A stretch of DNA of 63,980 nt, counting the filler, from Hausera hauseri (taxonomy: Eukaryota), in the NCBI GenBank assembly GCA_046269625.1. It is 11 parts of 11 records of this genome, joined end to end, with 100 filler letters (N's around TTAATTAATTAA, not from the genome) between each part and the next. Parts side by side here need not be neighbours in the genome. Positions count along the whole stretch, not along the records: positions 1 to 5,988 come from JBJURY010157756.1; 10 more parts are not named here. One strand, 5' to 3'. Each line of letters begins with the position of its first letter. The first letter of the stretch is position 1. Made by a program: the position numbers and the translations under genes. The notes beneath the pieces are model-generated. The model ran no database searches. It had not been told where the DNA came from and saw only the letters and a program-made list of their open reading frames with translations. This document shows positions 1 to 48,199 of this stretch, piece after piece.

Positions 1-14
1 ATCGCGCCATGTAG

Positions 15-532
15 ATGGTGATGGACGACACCCGCTTTCAAGCAAAATTGGAATCGTTACTTGGCGCTAACCACTATCAAAGAGTAACTTCAGAAATATT
101 ATATGAGATTTGGGGAAAATTTTTAATTTTCGGACAAGCCGCATCTGGATTTCTAGCTATCTACCTTTTAGTCCAATTAGTAAAAGCAGTAATCCAAGCC
201 ATCATAAACGGATATGAAATATTCACATTAACAGGGTTTTCCTGTAAAATTTTGACTGCAATTACCACACCATTTGGAAAAATGACGTGGAACGCCACGT
301 CGGGTACTATAACCGCAAACGACGAGGGAGGCCCTCGATTCTGTACAAACGCAAAAACAAGAAAATAATAACTCGGAAAGATGATTCAGATGATGACGAG
401 CCTAAGGGAGGAGAAAAGAGTTCTAGAAGTAAGATGCACAAGATGTATTCAGTGACAAACGCGCCAATACCCAACATGCCACCAACTGCGCCAATATATG
501 AGAACTGTGACCAGAAAGAAGTTATATCTTAA
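15..532 (+). pseudogene. C-terminus (membrane-proximal, TM, cytoplasmic tail) of a chuvirus-like class III fusion glycoprotein, frameshifted near 285
   Basis: IWGKFLIFGQAASGFLAIYLLVQLVKAVIQAIINGYEIFTLTGFSCKILTAI fits the W..FL.FG..SAG..GI..I...IK..I...I.GY......G[WF]S..LL.A pattern I recall for chuviral-type glycoproteins; a basic tail with PPTAP follows in the next frame. Confidence 0.7.
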
Positions 533-848
533 ATGTCCGACATCTACAGCAAACCCGTTAACTATGAAGACCCTTATGAAAAAACGAAACAATATGTAGT
601 AGTACGGAAAATGAATGTCGCCAAACAAGGACTAACAGAAAACGATCACGAGATATTGTACTTGAAAAGGATACCCCGTAAGTCAGTAATCTGGGCGAAT
701 CCGAAAATACTTTCGATCCCAGGTCTGCTACCTCGAGAATCGCTCATCAACCGTCGTGTCCACAAAATAGCGGATAATAATTTATACCAAAATAAAGAAT
801 TGAGACAACTAAGGGAAAATATCATTTCATCACCGGCAATAACGATAA

Positions 849-1260
849 ATGGACACAGTCTCTACTGTAAAACAGTCAACATCAAATTGTTATGAAGCAG
901 TAGTAGAGGGAAGACCCTTCGCTAAAATATACATTGAAGACTGGGAAGTATACGCCTTAATCGACACAGGATCAGAAAAGTCGTTTGTAAAATACGAATC
1001 AATACCAATCACGCTACGCAATCAACTATGCCCACCATTATCATCAGACCCTGGCAGCATAGGAGCACTTGGGCAAGTATCGAAGCCAAAATTTAAATAG
1101 ACGCCCACCGTTTATATGATGGGCCAAGCACTTCAACACGAATCTGCAATAATGGACCAATTAACAGACGATGTAGTACTGGGTTGTGACATATTAAAAC
1201 AGATACCAGGCATGGCAATTGATGTGCATAACGAGAAATAAATTGATCTTGAACTAATTA
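849..1260 (+). pseudogene. Retropepsin (aspartic protease) of Gypsy copy 1
   Basis: GRPFAKIYIEDWEVYALIDTGSEKSFV, then past a stop ...DVVLGCDIL. Confidence 0.85.
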
Positions 1261-1530
1261 AAGGAACAAAAATAATGAAAGAAAAGAAATCGGGCGAAGT
1301 ATGAATTCCAGTAGACGAGGATATTCCGCGCAGAACTGAAATGATAATTTTTGCGCAGATTCGTTAAGATGAAGATCTACCGGTATATTTCGAACCTCAA
1401 GAAAATATTGATCCAAACTTCATGCTTATTAATACTTTATGCAGAGTAGTGACGGGACGAATACCTATTAATTAGTGAACAATGCGCCAACTCCAGTGAA
1501 ACTGCACGCTGTCACTACTTTAGGTCACAC

Positions 1531-2630
1531 TTGCATAGTGTCGGCAATAACAATAGAAAACAACCATACAAGTGCACAGAATTCCAACCTCACGTCAAAA
1601 CCACATTTTTTCCTAAGGCTTATTGCAAGTTCTATGAATTATTATGCACATACAGTTCAATAATTGCACAAAACGAGGAAAACATAGGTAGAGCAAAAGC
1701 CCTGAAACTAACAATTCCAATAAGAAAGAAACTTGGCTCGAACGACAAAATGGATCTAGAAAAACAGAAAATGCCAAAGTGGTATTCACCTCCTCATTCA
1801 TTGAGGCCAGAGATAAATAAAGAGGTAGAGCGAATGTTAAAGGCCGATATAATTCGACCAAGCTACCGAACATGGTACTCACCTATAATAATTGCTAAAA
1901 AGAAGGGAACTACGAAACATAGATTTTGTATCGATTACAGGGCATTAAAAACGCTAACGATGAAAGACTCGTTCCCCCTACCGTTATTAAAGGAAGCTTT
2001 AGATAGATCATCGGGAGCAAAATGGTTTACAACTCTCGAATTACAATCGGGATACTGGCAAGTAGAAATTGAAGAAAAATATCGATATAAAACAGCATTT
2101 AAAACACACGATCGTGTATACAAATTTAATTTTATGCCTTTTGGCATCACCAGAGGACCAGCTATTTTTACCAGAATTATGAACAAGATGCTTATGGGAC
2201 TTGATCATGCATTCGCGTACTTAGAAAACGTAATGATAGCATCAAAAACAGAAGACGAACACTTAAAGGATATTGAAGATACAATCATGCGACTAGATCA
2301 AGCAGGATTAAAACTAAATCCAAAGAAATGTAAATTGGCACAGAACGCAGTATCATACCTCAGACATATAGTCGGAGAAGGAGGATTTAAACCAGATAAA
2401 TCATTGCTAAATAAAATATCTGATTGTATGGAACCGCAGAACCAAAAAGACTTAAAACACTGGTTGGGCCTATGTGGGTATTATGCCACTTACGTACCGG
2501 ATAATTCGAAAATTAACGCACCACTTTATCGACTACACTAAAAAGGAATTAAGTGGAGATGGACGGAAGTGGAGCAAAAAGCCTTCGACGAAATGAAGAA
2601 AATCTTTACAAGTGAACCCGTTCTGAAGAA
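1531..2630 (+). pseudogene. Reverse transcriptase of Gypsy copy 1 (RNase H apparently deleted after about 2625)
   Basis: WYSPIIIAKKK..HRFCIDYRAL..DSFPLP..SGYWQ..MPFG..AYLENVMI..WLGLCGYY; the paralog on contig 4 keeps an RNase H that is missing here. Confidence 0.92.
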
Positions 2631-2829
2631 ATTACCACAGTAAAAAGGCCGCAACTCAAACAACTGGTTGAACGACAAAGAACTCTAATATTGGACAAGA
2701 CGATTAGAATTGCATTTGAACAAGCTAAAGACAAGGTTATTTAGCAAATTATAGAGTTTGTACAAAACGATAAAATACCAAAGGGACGACAACTCAAGAA
2801 ACACCTACAGAAACACGGGCATAAATAGC

Positions 2830-3890
2830 GCACATCAAACCAAGATAACATCCTATATTACGAACAAAAAGAAAAAGGCTAATAGTTATTCCGAAAGTAG
2901 TACGAATCAAAGTACTCATGGCCGAACACGACTCATATTTAGCTGGACACATGTCCTGGAAAAAGACATTAGAAACAATATTTAATAAATAATATTGGCC
3001 AAGCATTTATATCGATATAAAAAAGTGGATAAGTGTTTGCTAAGTTTGCGTAACAAAGCAAAAGAAAACAAAAGGCTACGTAGCAGAATTAAGGCCCATA
3101 AATGTACCAGACAGGCCCATGCAAGCTATGCCCATGGATATAGCAGGATCCTTGGCTAAAACTTACAAAAATAACAGATATATTCTAACATGCGTGGATC
3201 AATTAACGCACTTCGTCGAACTGGTGGCACTATTAGATCAGAAGACGCGGTGGTAAGGAAAATTATCCGCAGATACGGACCACCAGAGCAAATCTTAACG
3301 GATAGATGAAGGAACTTCACGAGTGAATTATTCGAAAAAACAACCAAGATATTTGAAATCGAGCGTTTAACCACTACGAATGAACGCAACAGTCATTCGT
3401 ATACTATCAACAGTAGTAGCAAAGGATCAAAAGGATTTGGATGAATTCCTAGAAGGGAGACAGTTTGTGATCAATACGACCCCACATCCAGCAACAGGAT
3501 TCACCATTCTTTATGATGTATGGACGAGAAGCAATTTTACCTACGGATTTGGGTATGACACCATATAAAAAGAACCTCAAGGATCTGGAGCAAAACTTTG
3601 CTGAAATCTTACAGACAAGGTTGCAAAAGTGTTGTGAAGTTGCAAAAACATTATCACTCAAATACCAGGAACAATTTAAAAAACAATATGATAAAAAGGC
3701 TAAACTTTATGATCTAAAAAAAGGTAATTAAGTTTATATCCACTATCCAGTCGCGAAGAAAGGCACATCCTTGAAATTAACTCGTAACGGAAGAGGATGA
3801 CATGAAATCGACCGCACAACGCCAACCACGGTCTATATTAACAAAAACGGTAAAGATGAAGCCGTGTCAATCCAAAGAATAGTTTAGACA
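2830..3890 (+). pseudogene. Integrase of Gypsy copy 1
   Basis: EHDSYLAGHMSW..KYYWPS..C..C zinc finger, MDIAG, YGPPEQILTD, MMYGREAILPTD; multiple stops and frameshifts. Confidence 0.88.
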
Positions 3891-3959
3891 GATATAAGAC
3901 CAGCCAAACGCTACAATTTAAGACAGAGAGAAGCCAAGACATCGACAGTTGTCACCAGA

Positions 3960-5381
3960 CCGGTATCTTACGCACAGATAATAGTAGCCTTATCGCTGAC
4001 TGCTGTTTTAACACCCAAGTCTAACGCCCAATGGTGGGTCGACGAAACTTCGTTGAGCAATATATATGGAATCCGGAAAACCGGAGTAAAACCTTTGCCA
4101 CCAAAGGAGGGAACTTCAGAACACAAAGCAGAACAAAAAGACGGAAAATTTTTACTAGCAATAAAATTACATTATTTTTTACCAGAAACCCCATATGTCG
4201 GGTTTAGGATACCTGAACCATATGAAGGGCAAATCCAGATACTATTCCAGGACCTATTAAACCAAGCCAAGTCTGAATGTAAATTCGAATCAGGAGACGA
4301 TACAATTTGCTGCAAAGTAGAATACGGATACTCTTACGTTCTTAGATATCGTTCATATCTGTTGAACTGCAATGAAATACGCGCCGAAATAAAATTCAAT
4401 TCACATCTAGTTATACCACAAACTTATGGAGACTACCTTAATATAGAGTTAGAAGATATGCTCCAGTCCATTGACCCATTAAAACGGATGGTAGAGGAAA
4501 ATATAGCTAGTATAACAGAAAACCAAAAGTATAGCTATATCCAAATAAACATAAAGGGGCGGCTAAATAAAGGAGAAGTAATCACGATTCAATTCATAAA
4601 AGAGGACAAATCAGGTGATAGCCAACAATACTGTCAAATTGACGCAGAAAGATCAAATAAGTGTTGCAAGTTACATCAAAAACATAAATATAGACTTAGA
4701 CTAGATTTGTATAAAGTTCGACCAAGCCAGCCAAGTATCTTCTTATGACGTTACCAATTGGAAAATCTAATCCAAGAAGCTCTGCCTCAAATAACGACCA
4801 GTAGAATTACGAATACAAAATTAAATGTGACTATTTCAACTTCCACCAAACTCCTCCAGGGAAGTAGATTACCTAAGAAGAATCTAGAAATGATTCCTAT
4901 AAAATATTGGACACTACAACATGAAATATCGTTCATTGTGGAAGAAGCACTTAATTAAGACGTAGAAATAAGCTGCCAAACATTACACAATAATCAGAAA
5001 GTGACATTGGCTAATGGAAGCTATCGAATCAAATGTACCGGTTTGAAACAGAAAACGGACTACATAATACAAATGAGTGCAAAGAACAAACAAAGTAGAA
5101 CGTTTACGGTACGGACCCTAAACGAGCTTGTCTTAACGAAACCCTTAATTAACGAGAAAACGAAAGACAAAATTATGACTAACGTTAAAACGAAAAATTT
5201 AACTAAATGGACAACTTTGCCATTAATATCGATTATTGGAACGTCAACATTTGCTCTCATAACTTTGATTGCGTTTTGTCGATTGATTACCAAAAACGGT
5301 TTTAATATGCGTCATAAAATCACCGAGAGGGAATTAAGAGTAATGGTACCACAGGATGAAATCAATGATGGGGTAACCTGA
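3960..5381 (+). pseudogene. Type I membrane protein (internal signal peptide, about 3 FN3-like repeats, TM, short tail), in frame with the integrase C-terminus
   Basis: ORFs at 3513, 4053, 4758 and 5001 share one frame, broken only by point stops; SP-like YAQIIVALSLTAVLTPKSNA|QW; FN3-like CTGLKQKTDYIIQMSAKN; TM LPLISIIGTSTFALITLIAFCRL. Confidence 0.75.
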
Positions 5382-5480
5382 CAATTACAGGTCGGGTTAT
5401 TCCACCATCTAACAAAGAATTGGTTCAAATTTAGAACAATACTTTGTTATAAGATTAGCCCTTACTTTTTGTTTTTCAGA

Positions 5481-5988
5481 ATGGTAAGTTTGGATAGCCG
5501 ACTTAGCATCGACGAATATTTACGGAAACAGGCCACAGTATTCATCCCAAATTCCAAATCTATCTACAGACGCATAAACGATGCATTACAAGCAAAAACT
5601 TAATCGAAATTACAAAAGTCAGCGAAATTCCAAATGAGCTAAAAGGCATTACAGAGGAGAACCGAGCAGTTTACCTATACGCAATGCGTGAAGACAATCA
5701 AGCCAAAGCTTTATTCCCTAAAAGAATTGATCCGAAACCGACCAGCTAAAATACAGGATATATATATCCACGTAGCCGATGGAAAAATATATTATAGGAT
5801 AGAAAACCAAACTTGGAACTCAAATGAAGTGCATCAATATCGGTTCAGTACATTCAAAATAAGCGAAAGAGGACTAGAACCTATTAACTACGGCCTTGAC
5901 TTTCGAGTAGCATCCCTTCCTGTCAAACTTATGTTCGAAGTGACCTAAAAAGAGAACTGCAACCTAGGCTTGCCAGTTCTAAAGTTTG
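5481..5988 (+). pseudogene. Accessory ORF (N-terminal part), homologous to 20989-21437 and 18278-19399
   Basis: SIDEYLRKQATVF..SIYRRI..KVSEIPNELKGITEENRAVYLYAMR..DIYIHVADGKIYYR aligns by eye with the contig 4 ORF; frameshifted. Confidence 0.7.
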
Positions 5989-9000: not shown

Positions 9001-9725
9001 ATGTGATGGTGTATTTTTAAAGTAATATGTTATGTGCAATCAAGTATCATAAAGACCATCTGTGGTAAAAATTTACTCCTGTCTAGTGATAACGATGAAA
9101 AGTATTAGCTGCAGCTCCTCTTGTGGTAGTATCTATATATTTTAATGTGCCAGTCTAGTAAGTTTATTTATGTGTTCCACAGATGGAAACAATTGTCAAG
9201 ACCCCCTGTTGTCTCTAATGTGGAACCAACTGGTGAGACCCTTGTTGTCTCTAATGGGTTACCAGCTGTTGAGAGACCTATTGCAGATAAGGTTCGTTAA
9301 TAATTTTTTTGTTTAGTCTAGTGAGCACAGATAGAACCAAGAGAGACAGCTAACTATCATTTTGTTTTAGCCTTTTAGAATACGGATATGTCAATTACCG
9401 AGTCATGTGTCATTATTTGTAACTTGGCTCTAAGACTATGTTTATCACAGATGTATTGGTTGTAATGATACTCGGGTGGTGGCCTAGGGAAATGTTAGGG
9501 GTTAAGTGGTTCTGTGACAGTGGGAAATATCGGATTAGGGAAGGCTGGAAGACAACAGTCCTGGGATTGTTAGAAAGCCTTGTAATATTGCCTGGAAGGA
9601 GTACATTGTCTGGAGGATTGACCCAGGTTGGAAGACATCAGTAATTGGAGTGAGGGTAGAGGGAACACAGTAATTGGGGTGAGGTTTGGAAGACAACATT
9701 ATTAAAAGTATGTAAACATATTATA

Positions 9726-12700
9726 GTGAAAATTGTTTTTCTTCCTATTCCACAGAGACAAAGACACACTTGTGGCATCTGCGATAGAGTCTTCACACTT
9801 GTTCATAACCTTAGACGTCATAATGACTCTGCACTGGGAAATAAAAACATACATGCAATATGCGCGGCAGAATATTTACCAGAAGTGTCAGCCTGTTGGT
9901 CCACGTACAAGGGGATCATTGTTACTCGCTAAAGAGGCCTGCTCCCTCCTATTTCAAGCGACACTGGCTACTGCTCCTTCCCAAGATAAAATACTGAGAT
10001 CTGCTCCTTCGAATAAGGGGGCTGCGCTAACTGGAAAAAAAACATAAACTGAACGAGGACCGGGTTGGTCCTTCCAAGAAAAAACAAAAAAAAAGCATCG
10101 GAATATGATTCGTTAATTGATTTACCCAATGATGTGAGAAACAGATATGATGACAATGAGGCATCTATAAAAACACACAGTATCATTGGCAAATACATTT
10201 CCACATATACTTATTTCCACAGACTAGACACTGAACACCGTTTGGACTGGAATTGTCTTTTAGACAACATATTTAATTGTCAGACACGTGGTTTAAAATT
10301 AACTACAGCCATCATTTCATTCGTAGGCACATCGAGACAGGGGATCTTAGATTTTATCATGCATTATATCAAACAATGCAGCAGTCTTAGAAACACCTAA
10401 ACATATCAAGAAACGGGCAGACTTTGTAGATTTCATTAAACATTTAGAGCCACAAGATCCAGTTAGCTTTGCATTACACAACAGGTCTAACACCAAATAC
10501 ACAATAGAAGCCATTCCTCCATATAATTTTTATATTTACCATTTAAAAGGATACCCGATTGGATGCACTCTAGACGAAATAACTGAACTCTTTACAAACA
10601 ACAAATCCATTTTTACACTAAAACACGACTCGTATACCACACTATATACAGATAATCTATGCTTCATTTGTTCTTTGGCAGTTTTTAGGGGTAGTGCCAT
10701 TAAAAACTTCAGTAAGTCGACACAACTCCTCAAGCATTGGTATGACTACCAGAGTCTCCAGCTCCTGGATAGTTTCCCCCGGAATTAGTTGAATAGATAT
10801 TCCCGATTTAGAAGAGTGTTTCCAGATAAATAAATATATATTTGAATTTGATGAGTACTTATACTTAAACTCGGAGGTAGCGGCGAATATACTCTGTTTA
10901 TTAGCGTATAGGAACCATTTTATGTATATTTCAAATATTGACCAAGCAGTACATGCTTTTTCGTGTAGCAAATGCAGCAAGCTTTTGCCCGTCCGCTGTA
11001 ATTTTATGAGACTCGAAAAGACATGTAATGGAGGCAACTCTGTCGATGTCTTTAAGGGTGGTGTTTACAGCCCACTCGAGACTATTTGTGAAGAAATCGA
11101 CCTGCTTGGAATATCAGTTGACACTAAGTTTATTTACTCATATCGAGCAAGATTTGATTTCAGACATATTCCCAAAAGACAAAGTTGGCTCCTGAGGCCA
11201 GTTCGACGACATTTGTCGCAAAGCACGTACCGTTATCGTGCTCTAGAGCTTCTAATGTGCATGGAATGACGGATTCCGTTTGCTTCGATTAAAACGGGAA
11301 TCATCGAGCCTTGGTTAATGACATAGTCGCCAATCTCCAAGAAATTTCGGAGATGGCTTATAGACTTTTAAAAAATCATTTGAGGACGTGCTTAACGTCT
11401 TGGGCAAGATAGAAGACAGAGCCCTCCTAGGTACGCTGATGCGTTTTTTGTACCAGCTCCCGGTCATAGGCATTAACTCGAGAAAACTTGACATTAACGT
11501 AATTAAACCATATCTCATAAGTGCACTCGCCACTCAAGGCGTGAATGGGGAAGCCGCTCAAGGAGGCAGCAATGGAGAAGAAAGTTTCCAAGAGAAGAAC
11601 CGAGCTGGAGCTGCCCAGGCTTCCGCCAAGCCTCATAATTTTATAGTTAAGTGTAACAATAACTTTATGTGCCTTTCTACACTAAAGTTGAAATTTTTAG
11701 ATATTTGTAATTTTCTGGCGCCGGGTTTTAGCTATAGCAGGTATTTAGCTGCGTGCAAGATAGAGGAAAGAAAGGGATATTTTTGTTATGAATATATTGA
11801 TGATTTAGCTAAATTAAATGAAACTAGTCTACCTCCCCACTCAGTGTTTTTCTTGTCCCTTAAGAATAAAATTTCAGATTCCAAATACTCATTTTTTCAG
11901 CACGCTTGGGGAGGAAACCACATGAAAACCCTTTAAGATTTTCACATTTGGTACAACTATAAGGATTAGTGCCCTTTTCAGATGCGTTAGAAAAACGATT
12001 GAATTTTATTCTAAGTTAGGATTCATATTTTCCGCAACGCGATTTCGGTCCCTGTCGTAACATTAAAGTATCTTTTTTAAAAATAAACCCACGGATGCAG
12101 CTTTTTATTTATATTAAAAGCGCGGGAAAGAAATCCATAAAGTGATTAGAGATAATATAGTGGGCAGGCCTCAAACGTATTCCATAGGTACCACGAAAAG
12201 GATGAGACGTGTATTAGGGGGAATACGTTAGTTCTGGAGATTAAAGGGTACGATGCTAAAGGCTATATTTATGGGCTTTAACGCAAGACATACCGACAGA
12301 TTTTGCTATATTTAGGAAGAGGGAAGACGGGTTTAAAGATGCATAAAGTTAATTATTATACAAGACAGTGTCGCCAGTGGTTAGCGTGGGTAGAACACAA
12401 GAATAAAATTACTTTAAAAACTGAATATAACGGTAGGGAAATGGCTTTAGGTTCCTTGTATAAAAGAGTAGATGGGTGGGATAAAAATTCGCGGAGTGCA
12501 TATCAATTTCATGGTTGTTATTTTCACGGACATTCGAATTGTCCCACCACCCGCTGTAAGGTGATTAATCCCGTCAGTAAGATACTGTTGGACAAGTTGT
12601 ATAAGAAACCTCTGACCATTCACGAGTGAATAGCTAAATATGCTAAAGTCGTGATGATGTGGGAATGTGAGAGGAAAGCTCTGAAAAAGTCAAATACATC

Positions 12701-13979
12701 AATAAAAGCTTTTCTGAGCACCATACCTTTTGTGGCGCGATCCACCTTCTAACGGCTACCGACAAAGACGAGAATTCTGAAAGCTGTAAAGGCCAAAAAG
12801 TGGCTTGGTCGAGTGTGAATTACACGTTCCCGAAAAATTGAAGGAGCATTTTTTTGAAATGACTCCAGTATTTAAAATCGTCGAAGTCTCTGGAGCCGAC
12901 ATAGGGGACTTTATGCGTAAATAGGCAATACAGAACAAACTCTTGACGAGTCCCCGTCCTACGCTGGTAAACAGTTACAAAGACGAAAAGATTCTTCTGA
13001 CCTCCTCATTATAAAGGTGGTACATGAACCACGGTCCACAAGTCACAAATGTGTACCGGGTCATCGAGTTTGGTGACAGCGCCGCAAATGCTCGGCGCCA
13101 GGGAGATACGCAATTTCGAATGAGACGCTAAAATTCTTGGGGAATGCTTATGGTACAATTCTTACCAATATAGCCAAACACTCTGATGTGTCTTATTGTA
13201 AGGGTGATGACACTGCCGATGCGGTTAATAGCCCCCTATTTAAAAAGATAACAGAAATTAGTAAGAATCTTTTTGAAGTACAAATGCATAAGGAAAAAAT
13301 AGTTTGGAATCTCCCGTTGCAGATAGGTTTTTTCGTATATCAATATGCAAAGTTAAGAATGTTATAATATTATTATGCTTTTATAGATAAATATGTAGAT
13401 AGGTCCGATTTTCAGCTATGTGAAATGGATACAGATAGTTTGTATTTGGCCCTTAGTAAGTGTGACCTAGCCGATGCAGTCAGAACCACAAATTAGAGAA
13501 GAATTTTGTAGCGTGTACGACATGTGGTTTCCTGCGGAAGTCTGTACCGCGCATAGGTCCATATTTGTTGGGTAAGGCGGGGGTAGATTGTCTGGCCTGT
13601 AGAAATAGGAAAGCATTCGATAATATAACTCCGGCCCTCTTCAAATTAAAATATGCAGGCGAAGGAATGATATTCCCTTGTAGTAAAACCTACCATTGCT
13701 TTGGGAGTTACAACAAAACCATTACAAAAGGCATAACAAAACAACACAGTTACAACAAAACCAGTATAAAAGGCATAACAAAACAACACAACACACTAGA
13801 CAAAGACAAATTCTTATCAGTTTTAGAGAAACAACAACCACAGGCAGGGACAAACACGGGGTTCAAACTACACAAATCCGCAGTATACACTTAAACACAA
13901 CTTAGGAACTCATTATCTTACTCTTATATCAAAAGACAGGTCCAGTCCGAAAAATTCACACCAAAACCACTCGACATTT

Positions 13980-15545: not shown

Positions 15546-15751
15546 TAATCAATAATCGTAAGAACAAAACGAATCGCTGGAGGTGCTCAAGATTCATCCA
15601 TGTCACTGGATGGAATATACGAAATCAAGTGTTATGTATTCNNNNNNNNNNNNNNNNNNNNNNNNNNNNNNNNNNNNNNNNNNNNTTAATTAATTAANNN
15701 NNNNNNNNNNNNNNNNNNNNNNNNNNNNNNNNNNNNNNNNNTAAATATATT

Positions 15752-16480
15752 TTGGTATTTATTGATTATTTCACCAGATGGGTGGTGGCTTTACCAATGC
15801 CTGATATAAGGGCTGACACAATTGCTGAAAGATTTGTGGAAAATATAGTATTCAATTACGGAGCTCCAAGAATTCTGACAGGGACTGTAATGCAGTCCAT
15901 ATATGATATATTGAAAATATTAAAGTTACGGTCAACGCCCGCACATCCAAAGAATAATGGAATGGTTGAAAGGTATATTGGAGACCTAAAAGGTAAATTA
16001 CAAACAGTAGTAAATACTAGGCAGGATGACTGGGACGAATACATCAATGCATGTGTTTTCGTCAATCGGACATCAGTCCATGAGGCGACTAAAGAAACAC
16101 CCTTTTATATAATGTATTTGCGAGATGCAAGACTACCAATCGATTTAGATTTCAACGTAAAAACAATTTCACACTTAATGGAAATAGAAGACTATAAACA
16201 AGTAATGCAAGAACACCTCCAGTTGGCATACAAAATGATTGGTGATAACCAGAAAGATTATAAATTAAAATATAAGAAATACTATGACCAAAAGACGAAG
16301 CAGCCTAGAATCAAGATAGGCGACCAGGTGATGTTGCATTCTCCAACAATTAAAAAGGGTAAAACGTCTAAATTAGACAGACCATAAAAAGGACCATATG
16401 AGGTAGAAAAAATAGACCTACCGAATATTTGCCTAAAGAAAAATAATACTTCCGTAAAAGTACATATTAACAGATGTAAG
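15752..16480 (+). pseudogene. Gypsy integrase core + GPY/F C-terminus
   Basis: FIDYFTRW, YGAPRIL, HPKNNGMVER, ETPFYIMYLRD, KLDRP*KGPY..VHINRCK. Confidence 0.92.
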
Positions 16481-16579
16481 CCTGCTGCTAAGGAGAGTAA
16501 GTTAAGAGAAGGTAAAAAAGAGTTAGTAAACAGCATCAGTGAGAAGGAAATCGAAAAGGACTCAACGAATAAACTGCCT

Positions 16580-17965
16580 ATAAAGAAGATATTATTACTA
16601 GGCATCATTCTATTACTTCCCATAGTAGTAGGACAAATGTCGGATCAAAAAGTTCAAAAAGCCAAAATACGACATGCTACAGCCATAAACGAGGATCTAT
16701 GGTTAAAAATCTTAAAGTATCACATAACATATTCCATGCAAGGTCAAAAATGCATTACCTGGTATACTACGAGACAAATACCTGGTGATTATATCATAGA
16801 GATACAAATAACCCCAGTCAACGGTCACGAAAGAAACTCTGATGAGAGATATAATAGTTGCACCCTACGTTCAGTGACTAATAAAACGCAATGTCCAATA
16901 GACACTTCAGGGACACATAGGGTATACCTAACGCTTATAAAAAAGAAAGGAGGTTATTATTATAGTTTACATACTAAATTTTACAGGTATATACGAGTTC
17001 CCAATAGACAGGGAATGAATGAAACACTGCTTGATGAAATAATACTCGCTCAGAAAAAAATAAGATCAATAGAATTTAAAAGTGGACGAAGTTGTCTCGA
17101 AATAAGAAGTATGATAGAATTAGAATATATTCGATGGATAACGATATCCATAAAAGAAATAGGAGGCAAACAAAGATTATTGAAATGTGAATTAACCGAT
17201 GAACAGCAACAAGTTTGCTGCAACGTAACAAGAGGTAAAATATGCGAAGTAAAATATACTTTGTCACGAAAGGAACACGGAAAGCTCAAGAATAGAAGAC
17301 AGAAAAGGTCCGACAATGTTTATACGATATAACAATCAAAATGAGTATGATGATATACGAAGAAGAATCACGGTACCACCTGTGCAAGTCTCGCCTGATA
17401 CCAAGGAGATGACTATTCTAATTAAACCATATGCTTCTTATTACCGCCAAAAACGTTCTATCTGGGATAACGTAACTATTATAGCACTCCCACGGCACTA
17501 ATCATCTCTCTTAGACCAGATCTCGACTTCATAAAAATTAAATTTGTCTGTAAAAGACAAGACACCACAGTAGCAAAAGGAATAATAACTCCTGATGATC
17601 TGATAGTGCTGTGTGCGGCTTTAGAGACTAATACGAAATATACAATTATGTTACAATTATTAGACGTTAACGATAAAATAACCTCTACAAAAGTAATGTC
17701 TCCAATCACAAAAGGTACTAGAATCGAATCACCATACAGATTAAATACAATCATGAATAAGACAACTAAAAAGCCATTACGAGCAGGATATAAGTATTCC
17801 CGCCTAGAAATAATCATAATAGGTTCAATAACCCCTGTGGTCTTAATAATAATATTGTTAATAGTGAGTAAAATCTTATATTGGCGATACAAACGAAGAA
17901 GAAGCTGGGTCAGAATTGATATGCGAAATCTAGCGAATCCGTTAGATACGGACAACCCCAGCTGA
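16580..17965 (+). pseudogene. Type I membrane protein with signal peptide, FN3-like repeats, two RQKR furin-type sites and TM; starts in frame with integrase
   Basis: KKILLLGIILLLPIVVG|Q in the integrase frame; CCNVTRGKICEVKY; CAALETNTKYTIML; TM IIIIGSITPVVLIIILLIVSKILYW then RYKRRR; internal frameshifts near 17320-17500. Confidence 0.75.
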
Positions 17966-18277
17966 CGATTAATGTTGAGGATTGCAATATACGCAACCCT
18001 CAGTAAAGAGATAACCAAACAACATCGAGTTATCTTATACGTTAAAAATAGTTATAACGAAACCACAATGATTACCTCCCTCAGTTGTTTGATAACCGTT
18101 GTGTTGTATTTAAGTATCGTGATAAATGACGTTTTGACTCTTATTTTTACAGTCTCAGCTACAACGTTCCACTAGATCCAGTCTATTACTCATTCCAAAC
18201 ACTGGTACGGTAACGTAAAGAACCATATAATTAACGCCAATCCGTCCAATCAATACTACGTATCACACAATGATAAT

Positions 18278-19399
18278 GTGACCAGTTTAAACTACCCTCA
18301 GATTCAACAAATCCTTAACAATATAAAAGGATATAGTATGGCTAACCGATCTTTCGCCATAATGCAAATTACTAAAGCCACATCATTTCTCCTAGAGGAT
18401 ATAATAATCCTACCAGATCGATTCCATTCTATGAATTTGTACGGCGTTGTGGGTCAAATTCAGATAAAAACAACAGACAAAAAAACATCAATTAAAGGAG
18501 ATCTAATCTATGTCGATCCTGAACACGGTCTAGCTTTCGATTACACCTTCCTTAAAGACAATCTAATTAAAATTTGTTCGTGCACAAACCGGGTAATATT
18601 AGCAATGAAAATAATTAAACTAAAAAAATTCTTTCCCAGTCTGCCAGAAGGAAGATGCTTCAATCTCCCGGAGCCTGACTACGTCAAGTACAAAAGTATC
18701 CCTTATAGAAGATTGGACAAAGTTACAGATAAAGACATGGTCATAGCCGCCGTAAACTTGGCCTATGACCAATGGAACCAGCTTCAACCTATCGAAGCCT
18801 CGGTTCTAACAATGAATGGAGACACCTTGCTGTATGGAACCATTACCCCAAGGCAGCGTATTAACAATTTCGATACGCACATAACCGGCCTCACAGAGTC
18901 TAATATCAATAACCAAATCGATCCAGTGGATTTTTACCGAAAAGTGACAGAAGCAATAACTGACAAGGATGTTATCGGAGCCAACGTGGTTGAAATTGTT
19001 ACCAACCATTTCAAGTGTCCAATCCGACGGATAGCTGGAGTACGTGATATATTATATCACGAGGATGTTATCCGCCGGTATCAGTTAACAACTAAGACTT
19101 ATAAAGAATTGGCCCGCAAATTCTATTACACAAAGGGCTTTTCTCTACGAATCACTGCCTTAGCGCAGTGCTACCAATCTATCTACAAACAATTAAAGTG
19201 GTCAGATGAGCTCATCAACCAAAGCACGGCCTCCGATACGGTGCGAACAGCACCCACGACATCGCAATGTGGAAGGAAACGTAGAATTCAACTTGATGAA
19301 ACAGTCGTACTGGATGATAAAGTATACAAGCCCGAAGCCATCCGATATAAATCAACAACAGGAAAATATATCCATATGCCCTTGTCGTTCGACCAGTGA
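18278..19399 (+). CDS. Accessory protein: unknown N-terminal domain + degenerate DEDDh (ISG20/REX4-like) exonuclease domain; frame extends upstream to 17966 with one TAG at 18173
   Basis: Long open frame; ASVLTMNGDTLLYGTITPRQRINNFDTHITGLTESNI..KVTEAITDKDVIGANV..VRDI resembles the REX4/ISG20 core but lacks ExoI DxE and GH..D. Confidence 0.65.
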   Translation: MTSLNYPQIQQILNNIKGYSMANRSFAIMQITKATSFLLEDIIILPDRFHSMNLYGVVGQIQIKTTDKKTSIKGDLIYVDPEHGLAFDYTFLKDNLIKICSCTNRVILAMKIIKLKKFFPSLPEGRCFNLPEPDYVKYKSIPYRRLDKVTDKDMVIAAVNLAYDQWNQLQPIEASVLTMNGDTLLYGTITPRQRINNFDTHITGLTESNINNQIDPVDFYRKVTEAITDKDVIGANVVEIVTNHFKCPIRRIAGVRDILYHEDVIRRYQLTTKTYKELARKFYYTKGFSLRITALAQCYQSIYKQLKWSDELINQSTASDTVRTAPTTSQCGRKRRIQLDETVVLDDKVYKPEAIRYKSTTGKYIHMPLSFDQ

Positions 19400-20988
19400 T
19401 AAATTCGGGGCAATTTATTGAAGCCCTCGTCTAATTCTACAAACCATTTGGAACTTTGCCATTTTAAATGGATCATATACGATCACATAGTACAATATTT
19501 GATCACGCAATATATTATTGACTTCTATATATAATATACATTTAACATTGATAACTGAAAAATGATACGTGATTCTTCTTACGTGATACGTGATTTTCAT
19601 ATGACTTTAATGGAATTTTTTGAGTGAAAGTTGTTTTATTTATTTATAAAGGAATTATTGTATGTACTATATAAACCGTGATTTTCTTCATCACAACACA
19701 ATTTTTTTGCCATTACTGATGACATCACGTAAGTGTAATAATTTAATTATTACGTCTGTTTGTTAAATTGTCAATTTTTCTTTGGTAACTGTACGTGTAA
19801 TCAAATAGAGTTATTTATTTTATTTAAAAGGTTGTTGTGCTTTCCTTAAGTAATAAAAGTAATTAAGTAACTCAATTAAATCGGATAAATTCTTCGTCCA
19901 GGTTAAAGTTACCTGACGAAGGCCAAATTAACTCCTAAATAACGTATAAGATATTAATCCGTAAGTAAGTAATTTATTAACGTTACAACTATTCACCTTG
20001 CAACATATTACCTCTGCACAGCTAGGTAAGGACCGTTACAAACTTCCTCAAGGACAAAAGAAAGAATTGTCATACTCATTAATTAGTAAACCAAGACAAT
20101 AATTGTTATTATTAATGAGTATGGAACATTATTCGTGTAGGCTTAGTTTTGAAGTCGAACTCACTACAAGGCTAAGACTATCCCGACCTCCAACTGTTAA
20201 AGTAAATTTTAAAAGAATCCCAAATTTAGCATTTGTAATTTGATATAACACAACTTTTTTGATTATTATTCTCTGATTGGGTTAAATACATAATTCATTA
20301 ATGTAAAGAAGTTCAAGCAGAAACAAATATATTAAAATTTTATAAACAGGTTTTCATGGCAAATAATTGCAAAGTCAATATTTTTAGTCTGTTTACTACA
20401 TTGAATGAAACTTTATAAGCAGATCCGATTGATAAAGTCGGACAAATTTGAATCGTTTAAATTTCTGTTGACTTTGGCAATTGTGCAAAATAAGAAAATG
20501 TCACCCAGGATATTGATACTTGTTTTAAAGTATGAATCATTGTTACTTATATTTGAATAAATTAGTGCAATAAATATCTTTGTCCTTTAATAAAATGTTC
20601 CCTTAACTTTTAGTGTTTTACTTAAAGAAGTATCATTTATTTGTCTAATCATAACGGAGGTATATTCACTTTGTTTTTGAAAAGTCGAATATGTTTGGAA
20701 TAGTATCACATGTTTAAAAAAATAAGAAAACAATGGATATGGTTTTTACATATGTTCCAAGGGAACATTTCTAACTGTCACACAATGGTTTTTATAAGGA
20801 ATAGTCAGATACCCGCCTTCGCAAAATTCAGCAGTCAAGTATGAAATTGACATACTTTGGTATAATTATACATACAATACAAACGAGCNNNNNNNNNNNN
20901 NNNNNNNNNNNNNNNNNNNNNNNNNNNNNNNNTTAATTAATTAANNNNNNNNNNNNNNNNNNNNNNNNNNNNNNNNNNNNNNNNNNNN

Positions 20989-21437
20989 GCGGCAATCCTC
21001 AATTCCATTTCATTTTCGCATAAGCTTTTACGACACAACTTGAAGGTACTGAACTTGTATTTTCGTCCCTTGTTTGAGCTCCAGTTTTTTCCAACTAATC
21101 TGTAGTAAACCTCTCCTTCAGCCAAATGTACATACACATCGCATTGAGGTCTTATTTCGGATTTCAGTAATTTTTTTAAGTTGTATGATCGGGCATCTTC
21201 GTTGTTTCTCATGGCGTATAATAGCAGAACTCTATTTCCTTCCACGATTCCTTTCAAATTGTTAGGGATTTTGTCTACTTGATTATATTCCACTAGTGTT
21301 CTATTCTGCAGTTCTATGTGGACTTGACGATATATAGCGTTGGAATTATGTGTTATTATAGTCGCACTTTCCTGTAAGAATTCGTCGATGTCGGTCTGGT
21401 CACAGCATTTATTTCGATTTGCCATCTTACTTACCAA
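20989..21437 (-). CDS. Accessory ORF (partial; runs off contig end)
   Basis: Open frame, same frame as the upstream membrane protein; homologous to 5481-5988 and to the start of 18278-19399 (Y.Q...I.NN.KG....NR). Confidence 0.7.
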
Positions 21438-21536
21438 TCTGAAATAAAAGTAAATAAGTTTATTCCTAGGACAGAGTCGTATTTCAGAATGAAATATTTT
21501 TACTGTCTGATGACAGAATAACCCGACCTGTAATTG

Positions 21537-22910
21537 TCAGGTTATTTTATCATACGAATCACTTTGGTGTACCACCCTTATTTCTCCGTCATTAATTTTG
21601 CGCTGTTTTTTACAGTTTTTGGTAATTATATAAAATGGCGCCATTAATATTAATAAGACGAACACTGACATCACAATGATTAATAAAATAGGTAGAGTTG
21701 TTAATACGAATGGTTTTTGTGTTGTTGTAGTGGTAATTGTATTTTCTATGTCTCGATTTCTTTGCGAATCTGGGTAAATATTTTCCGTTAAAGTGTGTAA
21801 GGTGATTGTCCGATTTTGTTTTCCCGCTGCGTTAATTTGTATTATATACTCTATCTGAGATTTCAGTGATTTACATTCAGTCTGTTGCGTATTCTTTATA
21901 AGTATTACATTTTGTCTACTATATAAGGTTCGATAGTTTATCTCTATATCGTAGTTTAATTCTTCCTCGACGAAGAATATTACCTTGTTTCGCTGCAATA
22001 AGTATTTAATAGGAATACCTTCCGGTTGCTTTCTGGGTCTTTCACTAGTCATGATGATTTTAGTAGCAATACTAGACTTTGTCGTCGTTTCAAATGGGAT
22101 TTTTCAATTTGTCTTCCTAAACGATATCCTCTTAGGTATATATTTGGCTAATTTGGTCTGACCTTATATAGTAGAACTGTATCTCGTAACTGTATCCTTG
22201 GGTATTTTACAGCACGGTTTTGAGTTCCACTGGCTGATAGCGCAGTATTTTGCTGGCGGATTTGTTTCTTCAGACGGTATGAATCAAACCGATATCTGAT
22301 AGGATTTAGTTAAACTTGTTCTAGTTTTAATTTGAATACATGCATTTTTTAAATCCTTGGAGACTTCAACTATATTTTCATTTAATAACTTAATTTGAGG
22401 ATCAGTACTTTGAACTATGTCGGATAATTTTACTCTGTCCATTAGGACTTGCTTGGGCATAGCTATTTCGATCAGTGGTCGTATCTCTGCTCGAATGATC
22501 TCATAGGGGTAATAATACATAAGTATTACATATCTGTATGTTTGTCCGAAATCTAGTTAACAACATTTTTTATAAACTCCATATCCAAACTAACAATCTT
22601 TTATCCTTTCACTATTTCGATCGGTAAACTTTATACGAATTTTCATATATTCTCTTGTAGCCTTGTCGGTTTGAAACCAGATAAAGGGCTTTTTCTAACC
22701 TGCATCATATGCTTTCATTGTTTTTATATTTTCCTTCCAGGTGTTTTTGTTCCTCTTTGATTTTGGCTTCCCTTCCCTTTTGGCAATTGCATATATATAT
22801 CTACTAAACTGGATTCGCTTTCATCCCACTACTACGCTTTAGTCTTAGGAACATAAGAAGCGATTAATGATAGTGTTAAGATTATCTGTACGTAAGATAT
22901 TGGCCTATAA
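21537..22910 (-). pseudogene. Signal peptide / FN3-like / TM membrane protein, counterpart of 3960-5381
   Basis: RPISYVQIILTLSLIASYVPKTKA; IPIKY..FFVEEELNYDIEI; CKSLKSQIEYIIQINAAG; TTLPILLIIVMSVFVLLILMAPF. Confidence 0.75.
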
Positions 22911-22999
22911 ATTATACAAGATGTCCTTGTTTTTTTCTTTCCTTCACTTGGGTTAAAACTCTGATTTTTGTATCGCAAATTATAACGTCTTCCCTGTCG

Positions 23000-24130
23000 T
23001 ATTCCTGTTTTAACAACTCTGCATGGATACTACCGCTTCTTTGCCATTTTTATTAATGTAAACAGTGATTGGTGTGGTTCGAAAAAGTTCGTAGGGCCCT
23101 CGTCCGGTACGAGTAAGTTTTAACGATGTACCTTTCTTTTGATTGGATAGTGCACATAGATCCAGTTTCCTTCTCCTAAATCATGAGGTTTGGCCTTCTT
23201 ATCATACTGTTACTTAAACTGCTCTTGATACTCGAGAGTGAGCTTCTTAGCTATATCCCAACATCTTTGTAATCTCGTTTTTAGAACTTCTGCGAAGTTC
23301 GGCTCTAAATCTTCTGGATTAATGTGATACGGAGTCATTCCTAAGTCCGTAGGTAATACTGCTTCACGTCCATACATCATAAAAAATGGTGTAAATCCTG
23401 TGACGGGATGTGGGGTTATACTGATATCAAATTGCGTTCCTTCTAAGAATTTGTCCCAATCTTTTGATCCTTTGCGACTACCGTCGACAAGACTCGCAGA
23501 ACTGTTGCATTCATAATTTCGATCATTCCGTTGCACTGAGGGTGATATGAAGTAGTGGTCAAGCGTTCGATCTCAAAGATCTTGGAAATTTTATTAAATA
23601 ACTCACTCGTAAAATTTCTTCCTCTATCGATTAATATTTGATCAGGGGGTCCGTATCTACAGAAAACTTTTCTTACCACTGCATCTGCTAAAGTTTCTGC
23701 CTTCTGATCGATTAGTGTTATTAGTTCAACGAAGTGAGTTAAGCGATCCACACACGTTAGAATATATTTGATATTTTTGTGAGTCGTAGGTAAGGGTCCT
23801 ACTATATCCATAGACATAGCGTGCTTAGGCTTGTCTGGTATATTGATTGGTTTTAGTTCTGCTATATAATTTTTCGCCTTCTTTTGTTTTGTCGCACAGA
23901 CTTCACAAGCGTCCACCCAGTTTTTCACGTCAATATAAATACTTGGCCAGTAATACTTATTCAATATTCTTTTTAATGTTTTCTTCCATGACATATGTAC
24001 AGCTAAATGTGAATCATGTTCGGCCATTTATACTTCTGTTCGTAATCCCTTTGGAATAACTACTAGTTTCCGTCCCTTTCGTTCGTAATATAAAATATTG
24101 TCTTGATTCGATGCATAGTATTTATGCCCG
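23000..24130 (-). pseudogene. Gypsy integrase
   Basis: HDSHLAVH..YYWP..CEVC; MDIVGPLP; CVDRLTHF; DRGRNFTS; YHPQCNG; TGFTPFFMMYGRE. Confidence 0.92.
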
Positions 24131-24329
24131 TGTATTTGTATATGTTTCTTTAGCTGGCGTCATTTTGGTATTTCATCTCGCTCGGAAAATTTGATTACTT
24201 TTTTAATAACTTTATCTCTAGCTTGTTCTGCAGAAAATTTGATTGTTTTATTCAGCGTTAAGGTCCGTTGTCGTTCTATTAATTCTTCGAGTTGTGCCTT
24301 CTTCATAGTCGTAATCGTAATTGTCTTTG

Positions 24330-25274
24330 TCTTAAGTCTTGTTAACGCATCTGCGTCGATGTGTTTATTTCTGGGTTTATATTGAAATTCCATATTGTAT
24401 CGGGAGATTTTCTTGATCCATCAAGTTAGTCTACATGTCAGGTTACCGTCCCGTCCTTTTAACGTTGTAAGAGCCTTGTGATCGGTAACTACGCTAATTT
24501 TCTGTCCGTAGAAATAGACATTAAAATGCCTTTAAGCTTCTTTCACGGCTAATGTCCTCCATATGCGATTGGATGTTCCAATTCTTCATCGTCGCGTTTC
24601 TGAGCCAATTCACAGCCAATTCCTTCTTTACTTGCGTATGTTTTAATTATAAACGGTAAATTAAAATCAGGATATCTTAGCACTGATTCATTGGTTAAAA
24701 TTTTCTTCATTTCATCGAACGCCCTTTGTTCGATATCGGTCCATCTCCACTTGATTCCCTTTTTCAATAAACGATATAATGGTGCGTTTATTTTCGATTT
24801 GTCTGCCACATAAGTGGCGGAGTATCCACATAAGCCTAACCAATGTCTTATTTCCTTCTGATTTTGGGGCTCCATACAATCTGATATTTTGCTCAATAAG
24901 GATTTATCTGGTTTCGATCCTCCTTCTCCGACTATATGCCCTAGATAAGATACAGCTTTCTGTGCCCATTTACATTTCCTGGGATTTAGTTTCAATTCTG
25001 CCTGTTCTAACCTCATAAGAGTATTTTCGATGTCTTTTAGGTGTTCTTCTGTTTTCGATGCCATCACTACATTGTCTTAGTAGGCGAACGCGTGATCGAG
25101 ACCCATTAACATTTTATTCATCATTCTGGTGAAGATAGCTGGGCCGGTTGTTATACCGAACGTATTATGTTAAATTCGTAAACTGCGTCGTGCGTTTTAT
25201 ATTCTGTTTTATAACAATCGTTTCCTTCAATTTCTACTTGCCAGTATCCGAATTGTAAATCCAGCGTGGTAAAC
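24330..25274 (-). pseudogene. RT (C-terminal half) and RNase H
   Basis: LKLNPRKC..VSYLGHIV..WLGLCGY..LRYPDFNLPFIIKTYAS..HPIAY..VTDHKAL..ADALTR. Confidence 0.9.
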
Positions 25275-29783: not shown

Positions 29784-32470
29784 TTGAATATAACTTATGC
29801 TTTTGGATTTTGTCTATGTTACGGAATTACAAATTGGTGTCAGAAGATATTGTCTTCATTAAACGAATTCCATTGGATACCTTCTGTGAATCCTGATAGT
29901 ATTAAAAAGGAAAAGAGAATTCTTAATGATATTCGAAAGAAGCTTTATGGTATGTACGCTAAAATCATTCAATCCTCATTATGGAAAGGCCATTTTAGCA
30001 GAAAACAGCAACTTCAATTGTCAAGAAATTGAACTACTTAGTCGTAAAAGTTGCGGTTTTAATGCCTTCAATGTATACAACGTAGCTGTAAAAATCATAG
30101 ATGGTTTCATTCCAAAAATCCATGTCGAAAATGAACCGGGTAGACGACAATACGATTACGACTTGAAAGCGTCCGACAGGAAATCTTTGTCAAATGCCCA
30201 AATCATTCGGTGAACTCGAAAGAGCGTCTAGGAATTACGGCGATAATAAATACTACACAGTTTTTGAAGTATTAACAACAGAAGGTTCAATGAAACCAGA
30301 ATTTGTTGAACCACCCATCAATCTAATCTCATCAGAAACCTATTCGCATTTGTTTGTCGTATTCTATGAGTTCTGGGATCCACATTATATGTATCCAAAT
30401 GGGAAAATCCTTGCAACACCCTCGCAGTGTAACATTCTCTGACTCACTCCCTTTGATATCGTTATGTGTAATATTGATCCAGAAATTGGTGGTTTACAAG
30501 ATGAGATAAAAACTATTGGTCAATCTGTTAATGGTTTTCAACCAAGCGTAAAGTTTCCCGAAGGAACAATAATATTTACTGTGGACAATGAAGATACTGT
30601 GAACACTAAAGATACAAAAATTCCGCCGTCATACTTGTTTGATAGACGACTCCGTGGATTTATTTAGTTTGGTTCCTCATAAACCCAGAGCGGTAATTAG
30701 TGTTTTGTTCCAGTTCAGCAAGACGGATTTATTTAACAAATGTGACATACGGGGAATATGTCATTGTTTCAAAATATAAGTTGAATTATAGGCCAGTTAG
30801 TGCTTGTTTGAAATCCATAACAAACACCATTGATGTTTATGATGGTAAGTTAATTGAGGGTATAAGAGTTTGTTTCAATATAGCGAAGCAAATTCGTAGG
30901 AAGCGTTTGCCTGAATCGTACTTTGTTCGGCAAGCCGATCACGTCCGTTTCAATTACGATTATGACGATACGTTTGATGGTCATATTTTGGTGGAGGAAT
31001 TCATGTTATTGGCCAATGAGTATGTGGCTAAGGCTATTTATCAGAAATTGCCAAATTTGAGTTTGATACGAAGTCAGGAACCGATAACTGATGGAGATAA
31101 ATGGGCGAAACAGCTGTACAAACTTACAAACGTTAAGTTTTGTGCTTCGTTAGCAGACTATTGTTCGCTCCTGAATATCGCCGAAATCAATAATGACAAA
31201 AACAACTTAATTGTTAGTCGGACATTCTATGATTTCTTCTGCGAATATATCGAGTCGAATCTTTCTCATGCACGGAATATGCTACAGTACGACGAATTTT
31301 ACAACAAATTCTATTATCACTTATCCGAATGGTATAAGCAAAGTCAACCAGCATGTTACCAATGCAGCGAGTCGAATAGCCCGAGCAGTCGTCACTTCAG
31401 TTTCAACAAAAATCTATATACTCATTTTACAAGTCACATTCTTCGATTTACGGACCTTGTTATGCACATCCTTCTTCGATCTTTCATAACAAATTCCGAT
31501 AACGTAAATGCTATCGATAAATCAGAAATAAATGACGTTTGTTCGATTGCAAACGGCAAGAAGAAAGACCAAAAATTATTTGAAATGATATGTGGAACAT
31601 ATTCATTAATGGATACGAAATCCGGTACCCATTGCTTTATACTAGACTGCGTGGTAACGAATATTGAAAAGGATAAATTCCATTTTGACCATCCATTTTT
31701 GAGGAAATTCTCAACGAAATCATCCATCAAATTCAATCATCTATCGCTGACCCAATCCACAGTGGAGTTTATGACAATTCACGAAATACCCGGTTTGTGA
31801 TTTTCGATGGAGAAAAATCTTCTATTCTTGCAATATGACTTTACAAACTGTGTCGGACACGTGTATTGAAATTAAAATTAATCTCTTCGACGTTATTTTG
31901 AACTGTTATTCATGGATACTGTTGCGAAAAATTCGCCGTTCGTATCAGAATCCAGAGGACCTAATTGATGAATTACACGAATTAAAATTGAATTTTACGG
32001 TTAATGAAATTGGACGTATTTTATCAGATTGTAGTCCGTATAGCAATCCGGTTTTAGATATTAAATTATTCGTAAATCTAAAAAGTACTCTTAGAATTCA
32101 GTTCTGCAAATACCAATCAAACTGATTATGGAAAGACATTCCTGAGATATTAATTATTACTCCAACGTTCCATCTGTGTCTTCTCCATTATGAAGATTCC
32201 GTGATTTGTTTTGTTCCCGGCGGAAAACTAATGTTCGACTTTAATGATATTGAATGGGAATTTCAATCCAGCGATGATTATAAACGATATTTTGAGCCGA
32301 TGTTTCGATTCGAATCATTGATGGAAACACTGTACAATCCTAACATATTTAATATACAGGACACGCCTGTTGAATGGTTCCAAACGAATGTTATGGATTC
32401 AAAACCATATGGAACATTCGGCATTTTGAAGCTTGATTTTAATTTCTGTAAAGCTCGGATTATCAAGTTT
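29784..32470 (+). pseudogene. Intron-less RNase II (RNB) domain gene fragment, HELZ2-like
   Basis: IFTVD, HILVEEFMLLANEYVA, LIRSQ, RHFSFNKNLYTHFTSHILRFTDLVMH; downstream [27 protein letters not shown] resembles the post-RNB segment of HELZ2; several stops and frameshifts. Confidence 0.75.
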
Positions 32471-32479
32471 TACGGTTTA

Positions 32480-48071: not shown

Positions 48072-48199
48072 CACCCAATGTGCGATGCAAAAATCCAATT
48101 GGTGTAGTGTATCCGTGTCACTTGACGAGATATTGTTTATTGGAACCTTTGCCACGTGAACGTAGAATTTCCTGAATGCAATATACATCGGGTTTCTCA

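Follow-up and report, generated by a model that had tools for sequence, protein, structure and literature searches.

A conserved UGA-CAA-UUA junction, a candidate site of programmed readthrough, between a membrane protein and an accessory ORF in a gB-env Ty3/gypsy element of Hausera hauseri

Introduction

Does the stop codon that parts a membrane protein from an accessory ORF in a retroelement of Hausera hauseri simply end translation, or do some ribosomes read through it? Retroelements are known to use readthrough at gag-pol and pol-env junctions. In the present case it would append an accessory effector to a surface protein, and the short cassette in which the stop lies poses a question of its own: what is the role of a hairpin enclosing a leaky stop? 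The original prediction for this locus was that programmed readthrough adds the accessory domain to the cytoplasmic tail of a fraction of the molecules. Here, we analyzed the whole stretch of DNA concerned (the window; 63,980 nt of assembly GCA_046269625.1), which consists of 11 contigs joined by N spacers, and focused on three copies of the element, numbered 1, 3, and 4.

Results

The three copies lie on three separate contigs, each of which carries a portion of a Ty3/gypsy element, and every copy is decayed (Table 1). The contigs end inside elements, those of copies 3 and 4 beginning further 3' than that of copy 1. The order in copy 1 is a C-terminal piece of a gB-type env, protease, RT, RNase H, integrase, membrane protein, TGA, and accessory ORF. 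The Ty3/gypsy pol order PR-RT-RH-IN is thus present (for RNase H and integrase, the domain scores come from copy 4, which is homologous), and the pol of copy 1 is interrupted by stops and frameshifts. The gB-type env upstream of pol was seen in copy 1 only. The closest among 91 pol matches in databases show 37-43% identity, and the membrane/accessory cargo is absent from all 91 pol relatives examined. Copy 1 encodes a membrane protein on either side of pol, the gB-type env piece adjoining the protease (15-1250, +), and the env tail contains, near 480, what we take to be a PTAP-like motif. The segment at 1260-1600 (+), between protease and RT, resembles by eye the dUTPase-like insert of some gypsy elements.

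The membrane protein downstream of pol in copy 1, which is disrupted near 4746 and at 4956-4958, has a signal sequence, an FN3-like ectodomain, a TM segment at about 5217-5288, and a short basic tail, and is predicted to be of type I. The FN3 likeness of the ectodomain (fn3 E 0.04, Atlas score 0.87) is only a lead. The membrane protein of copy 3 gave no match to a profile of the membrane protein from the other copies.

Table 1. Positions of the element features, counted along the window.
Feature	Copy	Position	Strand	Evidence or remark
Contig	1	1-5988	+	5988 nt
gB-type (class III) env, C-terminal piece, upstream of protease	1	15..368	+	Pfam Monjiviricetes_fusion E 2e-15
Ty3/gypsy pol (protease, RT, RNase H, integrase)	1	882..3959	+	RVP E 7.6e-6; RVT_1 E 2e-28
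Predicted type I membrane protein, in the frame of the integrase C terminus	1	3960..5381	+	Sequence; relatives P0003, P0005
18-pair hairpin around the stop, loop AAUUACAG	1	5365..5408	+	Folding, shuffles, pS
TGA-CAA-TTA, candidate readthrough site	1	5379..5387	+	
33-codon open linker	1	5382..5480	+	No frame-0 stop; 1 and 3 stops in the other frames
Weak donor-like CAG/GTCGGG	1	5388..5396	+	6/9 consensus positions; candidate only
Pyrimidine tract and acceptor (AG ends 5479), with a GTAAGT donor 4 nt on, at 5484	1	5462..5489	+	pS 0 vs copy 4
Accessory ORF, N-terminal part	1	5481..5948	+	Frameshift near 5597; contig end 5988
Contig	3	15742-20888	+	
TGA-CGA-TTA plus stem-loop (17975-18003, from 10 nt after the stop)	3	17963..18003	+	Fold, context chance
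Linker, 69 sense codons then in-frame TAG at 18173-18175	3	17966..18175	+	Acceptor-like site ending 18152
Accessory ORF, 407 aa, DEDDh-like domain without motif-I acids	3	18176..19399	+	E 2e-12 to P0004
Contig	4	20989-25274	-	4286 nt
Linker and accessory ORF, open to contig end	4	20989..21536	-	
Acceptor (AG ends 21439), 4 nt, then GTAAGT	4	21429..21456	-	
Hairpin around the stop	4	21510..21553	-	TGA-CAA-TTA at 21539-21531
Membrane protein, C-terminal half	4	21537..22103	-	39% identity to copy 1

Elsewhere in the window, an ORF with an RNB (RNase II) domain, followed by helicase C-terminal pieces, lies between gypsy fragments (30697-33265, +). At 40573-43461 (+), a gag-like frame with a CCHC knuckle precedes a long coiled-coil-like frame; the sense strand is rich in A, as it is in copies 1, 3, and 4, and the segment may represent the 5' region of a related element. 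Decayed frames at 9700-13900, 36005-40472, and 45060-49304 are Polinton-like by eye (DNA polymerase B, integrase), and a piggyBac-like transposase is found at 55057-56851 (+; DDE_Tnp_1_7 E 2e-74). The high-GC bacterial contig at 58172-63980 (DUF1800, DUF1501, porin, integrase-like) shows that the assembly is mixed.

The central observation is a 29-nt block around the stop, which shows no differences between copy 1 (5374-5402, +) and copy 4 (21544-21516, -). As originally predicted, this identity coexists with diverged flanks: pS between the two copies is 0.67-0.74 in the four flanking coding pieces and falls to 0.27 over the hairpin codons, which indicates that the block is under selection at the nucleotide level. 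It is the longest exact word common to the two contigs, the next-longest (25 and 22 nt) both being in RT, and 3' of integrase there is no other common word of more than 12 nt. A 26-nt core, searched at up to 3 mismatches, matches these two places only (0/100 shuffles). On sequence comparison, therefore, the stop/hairpin junction is a real, selected feature.

The block is part of a hairpin that encloses the stop. The stem had been described as 11-13 bp; the hairpin and its exchanges of G-U for A-U (two pairs) are real, but the stem is longer, with 18 pairs, of which 17 are standard in each copy and one is an A.C mismatch. From copy 1 to copy 4, two G-U pairs become A-U, one U-A becomes U-G, and one G-C becomes A-U, i.e., three one-sided changes and a single two-sided one, and covariation has no statistical support from these two sequences (248/500 shuffles). 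The hairpin, with z of -4.5 in copy 1 and -7.2 in copy 4, is the most stable 45-nt window of both contigs. The stop codon is in the 5' arm and CAAUUA extends into the loop, where the unpaired bases AAUUA are conserved, which pairing does not explain. From this position of the stop, and from established ribosome geometry, we infer that the hairpin must be open while a ribosome holds its 5' arm; it would have to be melted during decoding of the stop and is thus not a standard 3' stimulator. We considered a conserved switch, with later linker sequence pairing to the 3' arm once this is released, and found no support for it (123/2000 and 1035/2000 shuffles). No Rfam family reached its gathering score in 5200-5700, where there were four weak matches. 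A second long hairpin in the copy 1 linker (5401-5458) has a weak mir-239 match below the gathering score, and copy 4 folds differently there.

Downstream of the stop, the predicted 33 in-frame sense codons before the accessory ORF are present in both copies, but the start is an ATG in copy 1 and a TTG in copy 4, in which the first ATG is at 21425, 4 codons past the end of the linker. By itself, a frame open over 33 codons has a P of about 0.08 per copy, and linker codons 10-31, with pS 0.47 and pN 0.51, show no protein-level constraint. The linker ends in candidate splice signals, which were scored by a simple consensus count rather than by a trained model. On the sense strand of the 5988-nt and 4286-nt contigs this is the sole acceptor with at least 12/15 pyrimidines, and it lies at +101 in both. 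The donor-like CAG/GTCGGG lies at the boundary of loop and arm, its intronic part being paired in the 3' arm. As read from the sequence, excision of the 89 nt from CAG/GT to the acceptor would shift the frame into a nearby stop. Joint use of this donor and the acceptor would thus close the frame, which is a reason to mask that donor. A -1 frameshift was rejected, as no slippery heptamer could be seen by eye upstream of the stem and, within the linker, the -1 frame is closed.

In the more distant copy 3, the predicted TGA-CGA-TTA is real and in frame with the accessory ORF, but an in-frame TAG intervenes. Eight of nine context bases are kept (chance about 0.003), and the linker has one stop where 4.8 are expected (P 0.04). 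A search for a stop-enclosing hairpin found no significant fold (232/500 shuffles), and the region 3' of the stop has a z of about -4.4, against about -3 in copy 1 and about -1.4 in copy 4. The accessory protein is distant, with 21% identity. Part of the copy 3 linker (18068-18172, +) has a hydrophobic translation, but its sequence also resembles the T-rich 3' terminus of an intron. A TAA-CAA-TCA at 17330-17338 (+) in the membrane gene of this copy, followed by three open codons, was taken as a chance match at a frameshift.

With the copy 4 junction as query (X in place of the stop), a full search of 1.84 billion representatives returned four matches, P0002-P0005, all single-contig proteins, none of which is a fused form with a sense codon. 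Two of them, P0003 and P0005, are membrane proteins whose last residue coincides with that of the window copies, in an R-I-T ending; judged from the protein, these residues would fit codon sets that could form pairs with the 3' arm. The other two, P0002 and P0004, are accessory proteins, and their N termini extend back into the linker. That of P0002 fits the linker in frame with a one-codon gap (1/2000 shuffles; 10/2000 without the pyrimidine tract), and a start in the -1 frame of the block was rejected (753/2000 shuffles vs. 20/2000 for frame 0). The N terminus of P0004, however, fits the copy 1 linker best at +1 nt (5.5 vs. -0.9 bits; 46/2000 shuffles without the pyrimidine tract, 119/2000 with it). 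This is modest evidence. P0003, which probably belongs to the same element (to judge solely from the 16242-nt size of the contig that carries both), is N-terminally short, so that this copy may be decayed. An F-rich plus V-S pattern recurs in P0002 and P0004, and these two proteins share with copies 1 and 4 an in-frame Met between the acceptor site and the conserved domain.

The accessory-protein profile matches PolC exonuclease (E 3.6e-5), ISG20L2 (3.6e-4), and DnaQ (1.1e-3), and in Atlas RNase_T comes up as a lead at 0.89, under its threshold of 0.9. The protein thus has the DnaQ-like domain of an active DEDDh exonuclease and lacks the motif-I Asp and Glu, which are replaced in all three sequences that span the motif. 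This makes the domain a probable DEDDh-like pseudo-nuclease, with catalysis presumably lost. P0004 (870 aa), the one long relative, is homologous to the copy 3 ORF and carries a RING finger (E 2.6e-7). The two predicted structures were of low quality (mean pLDDT 30.9 and 35.5), and the fold search gave nothing at E 0.001 or better, the DEDDh nucleases among its weak rows standing beside unrelated folds and not being counted. P0004 had no match among phage records. A word-based search of proteins of 1524-4350 aa added nothing, which is a weak negative, as this range misses the size of a membrane-accessory fusion; so is a second such search, which returned P0003 only and missed P0002 although it was in the query.

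Discussion

The best single explanation of these findings, and in our judgment a probable one, is programmed low-level readthrough of a stop codon that lies in the 3' cargo carried by a gB-env Ty3/gypsy element. The predicted fusion to the cytoplasmic tail is still the best reading, and type I topology would place the extension in the cytoplasm; the hairpin, however, does not qualify as a standard 3' stimulator, and the splice signals offer an alternative route. Most ribosomes would stop at the UGA and yield a surface protein of type I, whose tail would be some 30 residues long, while a minority, aided by CAA-UUA, would insert a residue there and cross an unconstrained spacer. The accessory protein would in this way be added to the tail of a minority of molecules, the added part comprising an N-terminal domain and a DEDDh nuclease fold that is probably inactive, together with a RING finger in the long relative. 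The hairpin of copies 1 and 4 would most likely act on untranslated RNA, by masking CAG/GUCGGG so that the spacer stays in the message, and the acceptor at the end of the spacer would probably also yield, in parallel, a free accessory protein from its own AUG.

Several observations argue for readthrough. UGA-CAA-UUA, including the unpaired AAUUA, has been kept through saturated synonymous divergence, and of the 12 stop-CARYYA matches in the window only two, the copy 1 and copy 4 sites, are flanked on both sides by more than 30 open codons. Copy 3, which is without the hairpin, keeps UGA-C.A-UUA, the frame, few stops, and a stem at +10, and the frame is maintained in copies 1, 4, and 3 and in P0002. 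The common end point of P0003 and P0005, and the in-frame match of P0002 to the linker, also speak for it. According to the available text of PMC3542737, CARYYA stimulates readthrough at UGA as well as UAG; in that of PMC3159437, an alphavirus stem-loop reporter with UGA-CAA-UUA showed 10.1% readthrough in cells, and the known position of 3' stimulator stems matches the +10 stem of copy 3. Against readthrough stand the near equality of pN and pS in linker codons 10-31, the modest improbability of the open frame, the +1 fit of P0004, the copy 3 TAG, the missing fused form among the four matches, and the lack of support for a conserved replacement 3' stem. Stops or frameshifts in the linkers of other copies, which had been named as evidence against the original prediction, are partly encountered here, the TAG being in a decayed copy and P0004 fitting best at +1. 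A stop-plus-structure junction can also fail to direct readthrough in a reporter, as reported for Tca2 in the accessible part of PMC2194720.

Splicing that yields a free accessory protein competes seriously with readthrough as an explanation, or may operate alongside it. Were splicing the only route, which strikes us as rather unlikely, the stop would be an ordinary terminator, the accessory ORF would be expressed from a spliced subgenomic RNA via the acceptor at 5479 and its own AUG, GTAAGT and the hairpin would tune splice-site use, and CAAUUA would be a conserved loop or protein-binding motif. The uniqueness of the acceptor in both contigs, its constant distance from the stop, and the GTAAGT 4 nt on all fit this account, as do the recurring F-rich plus V-S pattern and the in-frame Met, and it predicts both the +1 fit of P0004 and an unconstrained linker; bdelloid ORF3s, moreover, are described as spliced units in the available text of PMC5408684. 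It leaves unexplained, however, the context and +10 stem that copy 3 has without a hairpin, as well as the frame kept in copies 1, 4, and 3 and P0002; in copy 3 the first in-frame AUG after the acceptor is well inside the domain, and the 89-nt removal would run into a stop. A spliced membrane fusion, in which a donor in the TM-coding region joins the accessory ORF in frame and bypasses the stop, is suggested by copy 3, where ATA/GTGAGT at -99 is in phase 0 and, joined to the phase-0 AGs at 18175 or 18181, would skip both stops. Yet the best copy 3 acceptor is in phase 1, that of copies 1 and 4 is in phase 2, and an upstream phase-2 donor (6/9 matches) occurs in copy 4 only, so that we hold such a fusion to be very unlikely.

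Two further explanations deal with the hairpin itself. The position of the stop within a long helix would suit A-to-I editing in the 18-pair stem, converting UGA to a tryptophan codon, for which the amber/W site of hepatitis delta is a precedent. The A of the stop is, however, paired and preceded by a 5' G, a poor context for A-to-I editing, CAAUUA would be unnecessary, and copy 3 has no significant stop-enclosing fold; we find editing the least credible of the explanations. Alternatively, the hairpin could be a replication, packaging, or RNA-stability signal with a coincidental stop context, the accessory ORF being expressed by reinitiation or from an internal promoter. The incompatibility of the stem with a ribosome on the stop and the 12 occurrences of stop-CARYYA in the window would agree with this, and Tca2 has a junction promoter, according to the available text of PMC2194720. 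Such an unrelated signal is nonetheless highly improbable given the register of the hairpin on the stop codon, the copy 3 context, and the conservation of frame.

Beyond readthrough as such, we tentatively propose, as a possibility that we rate well below readthrough itself, a dual-output switch of 125 nt. One hairpin would hide both a donor and a stop; readthrough would yield a pseudo-nuclease/RING ubiquitin ligase tethered to the tail of the surface protein, splicing would yield a free effector, and the envelope would consist of two proteins, a gB fusogen and an FN3-like surface protein. If so, the balance between recoding and splicing would let the element determine where an effector that counters the host is located. 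The readthrough mechanism is itself already known, and what would be new is its place after a post-pol membrane protein, its anatomy (a UGA with CARYYA, an enclosed stop, and flanking splice signals), and its cargo. No description of this cargo, a second membrane protein and a catalytically eroded nuclease with RING, was found in the literature searched, which omits most subscription journals and Repbase. The cargo suggests that gB errantiviruses carry herpesvirus-like accessory machinery.

As in Type I readthrough (tobamovirus, benyvirus, pomovirus, Providence virus), CAA-UUA directly follows the stop in copies 1 and 4, while copy 3, with CGATTA, matches CARYYA at 5/6 positions. A single in-frame stop lies between the ORFs in copies 1 and 4, and P0002 is in frame over the visible part, whereas copy 3 has a second stop and P0004 a possible +1 shift. 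Unlike in Type I, where the usual natural stop is UAG, the stop is UGA in all three copies, a hairpin encloses it, the spacer ends in splice signals, and the host element is an animal retroelement. With Type II (alphavirus, coltivirus; UGA-C plus a 3' stem), the copies share UGA-C, and the copy 3 stem starts at +10, Type II stems beginning about 8 nt 3' of the stop, but the next codon is CAA, CAA, and CGA rather than CUA or CGG, and copies 1 and 4 are without a significant conserved 3' stem. Among retroelements, SIRE1 reportedly has a stop-CARYYA readthrough signal between pol and an env-like gene. In SIRE1, Tca2, and MuLV, two ORFs are parted by one in-frame stop, and papers citing the SIRE1 work speak of "stop codon suppression" (available text of PMC2194720 and PMC2829016). 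Their stop follows gag or pol, whereas that described here lies between a post-pol membrane protein and an accessory domain.

As for the element, copy 1 resembles gB errantiviruses and planarian Burro elements in having a gB-type env upstream of a Ty3/gypsy pol. The former, from nematodes, bryozoans, and flatworms, have the order GAG-ENV-POL (available text of PMC13524379), and the latter, with RING-related accessory motifs (available text of PMC6431247), are marked as Burro by BIR, BCL2, MATH, or ankyrin domains between gag and env. The available text of these two sources describes no 3' membrane protein, nuclease-like cargo, or readthrough for either group, and readthrough, fibronectin, and exonuclease have 0 occurrences in the main text of PMC13524379 as available. 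Bdelloid Juno and Vesta elements likewise have a DEDD-superfamily ORF downstream of pol, but their ORF3 exonucleases are DEDDy enzymes with intact catalytic residues in separate spliced units (available text of PMC5408684), whereas the accessory domain here is DEDDh-like, without the motif-I acids, and lies behind a membrane protein. In benyvirus and pomovirus, readthrough gives a structural protein a C-terminal extension (available text of PMC3542737). The junction would thus be comparable to plant viruses that extend their coat proteins, here in an envelope-bearing element of the invertebrate type.
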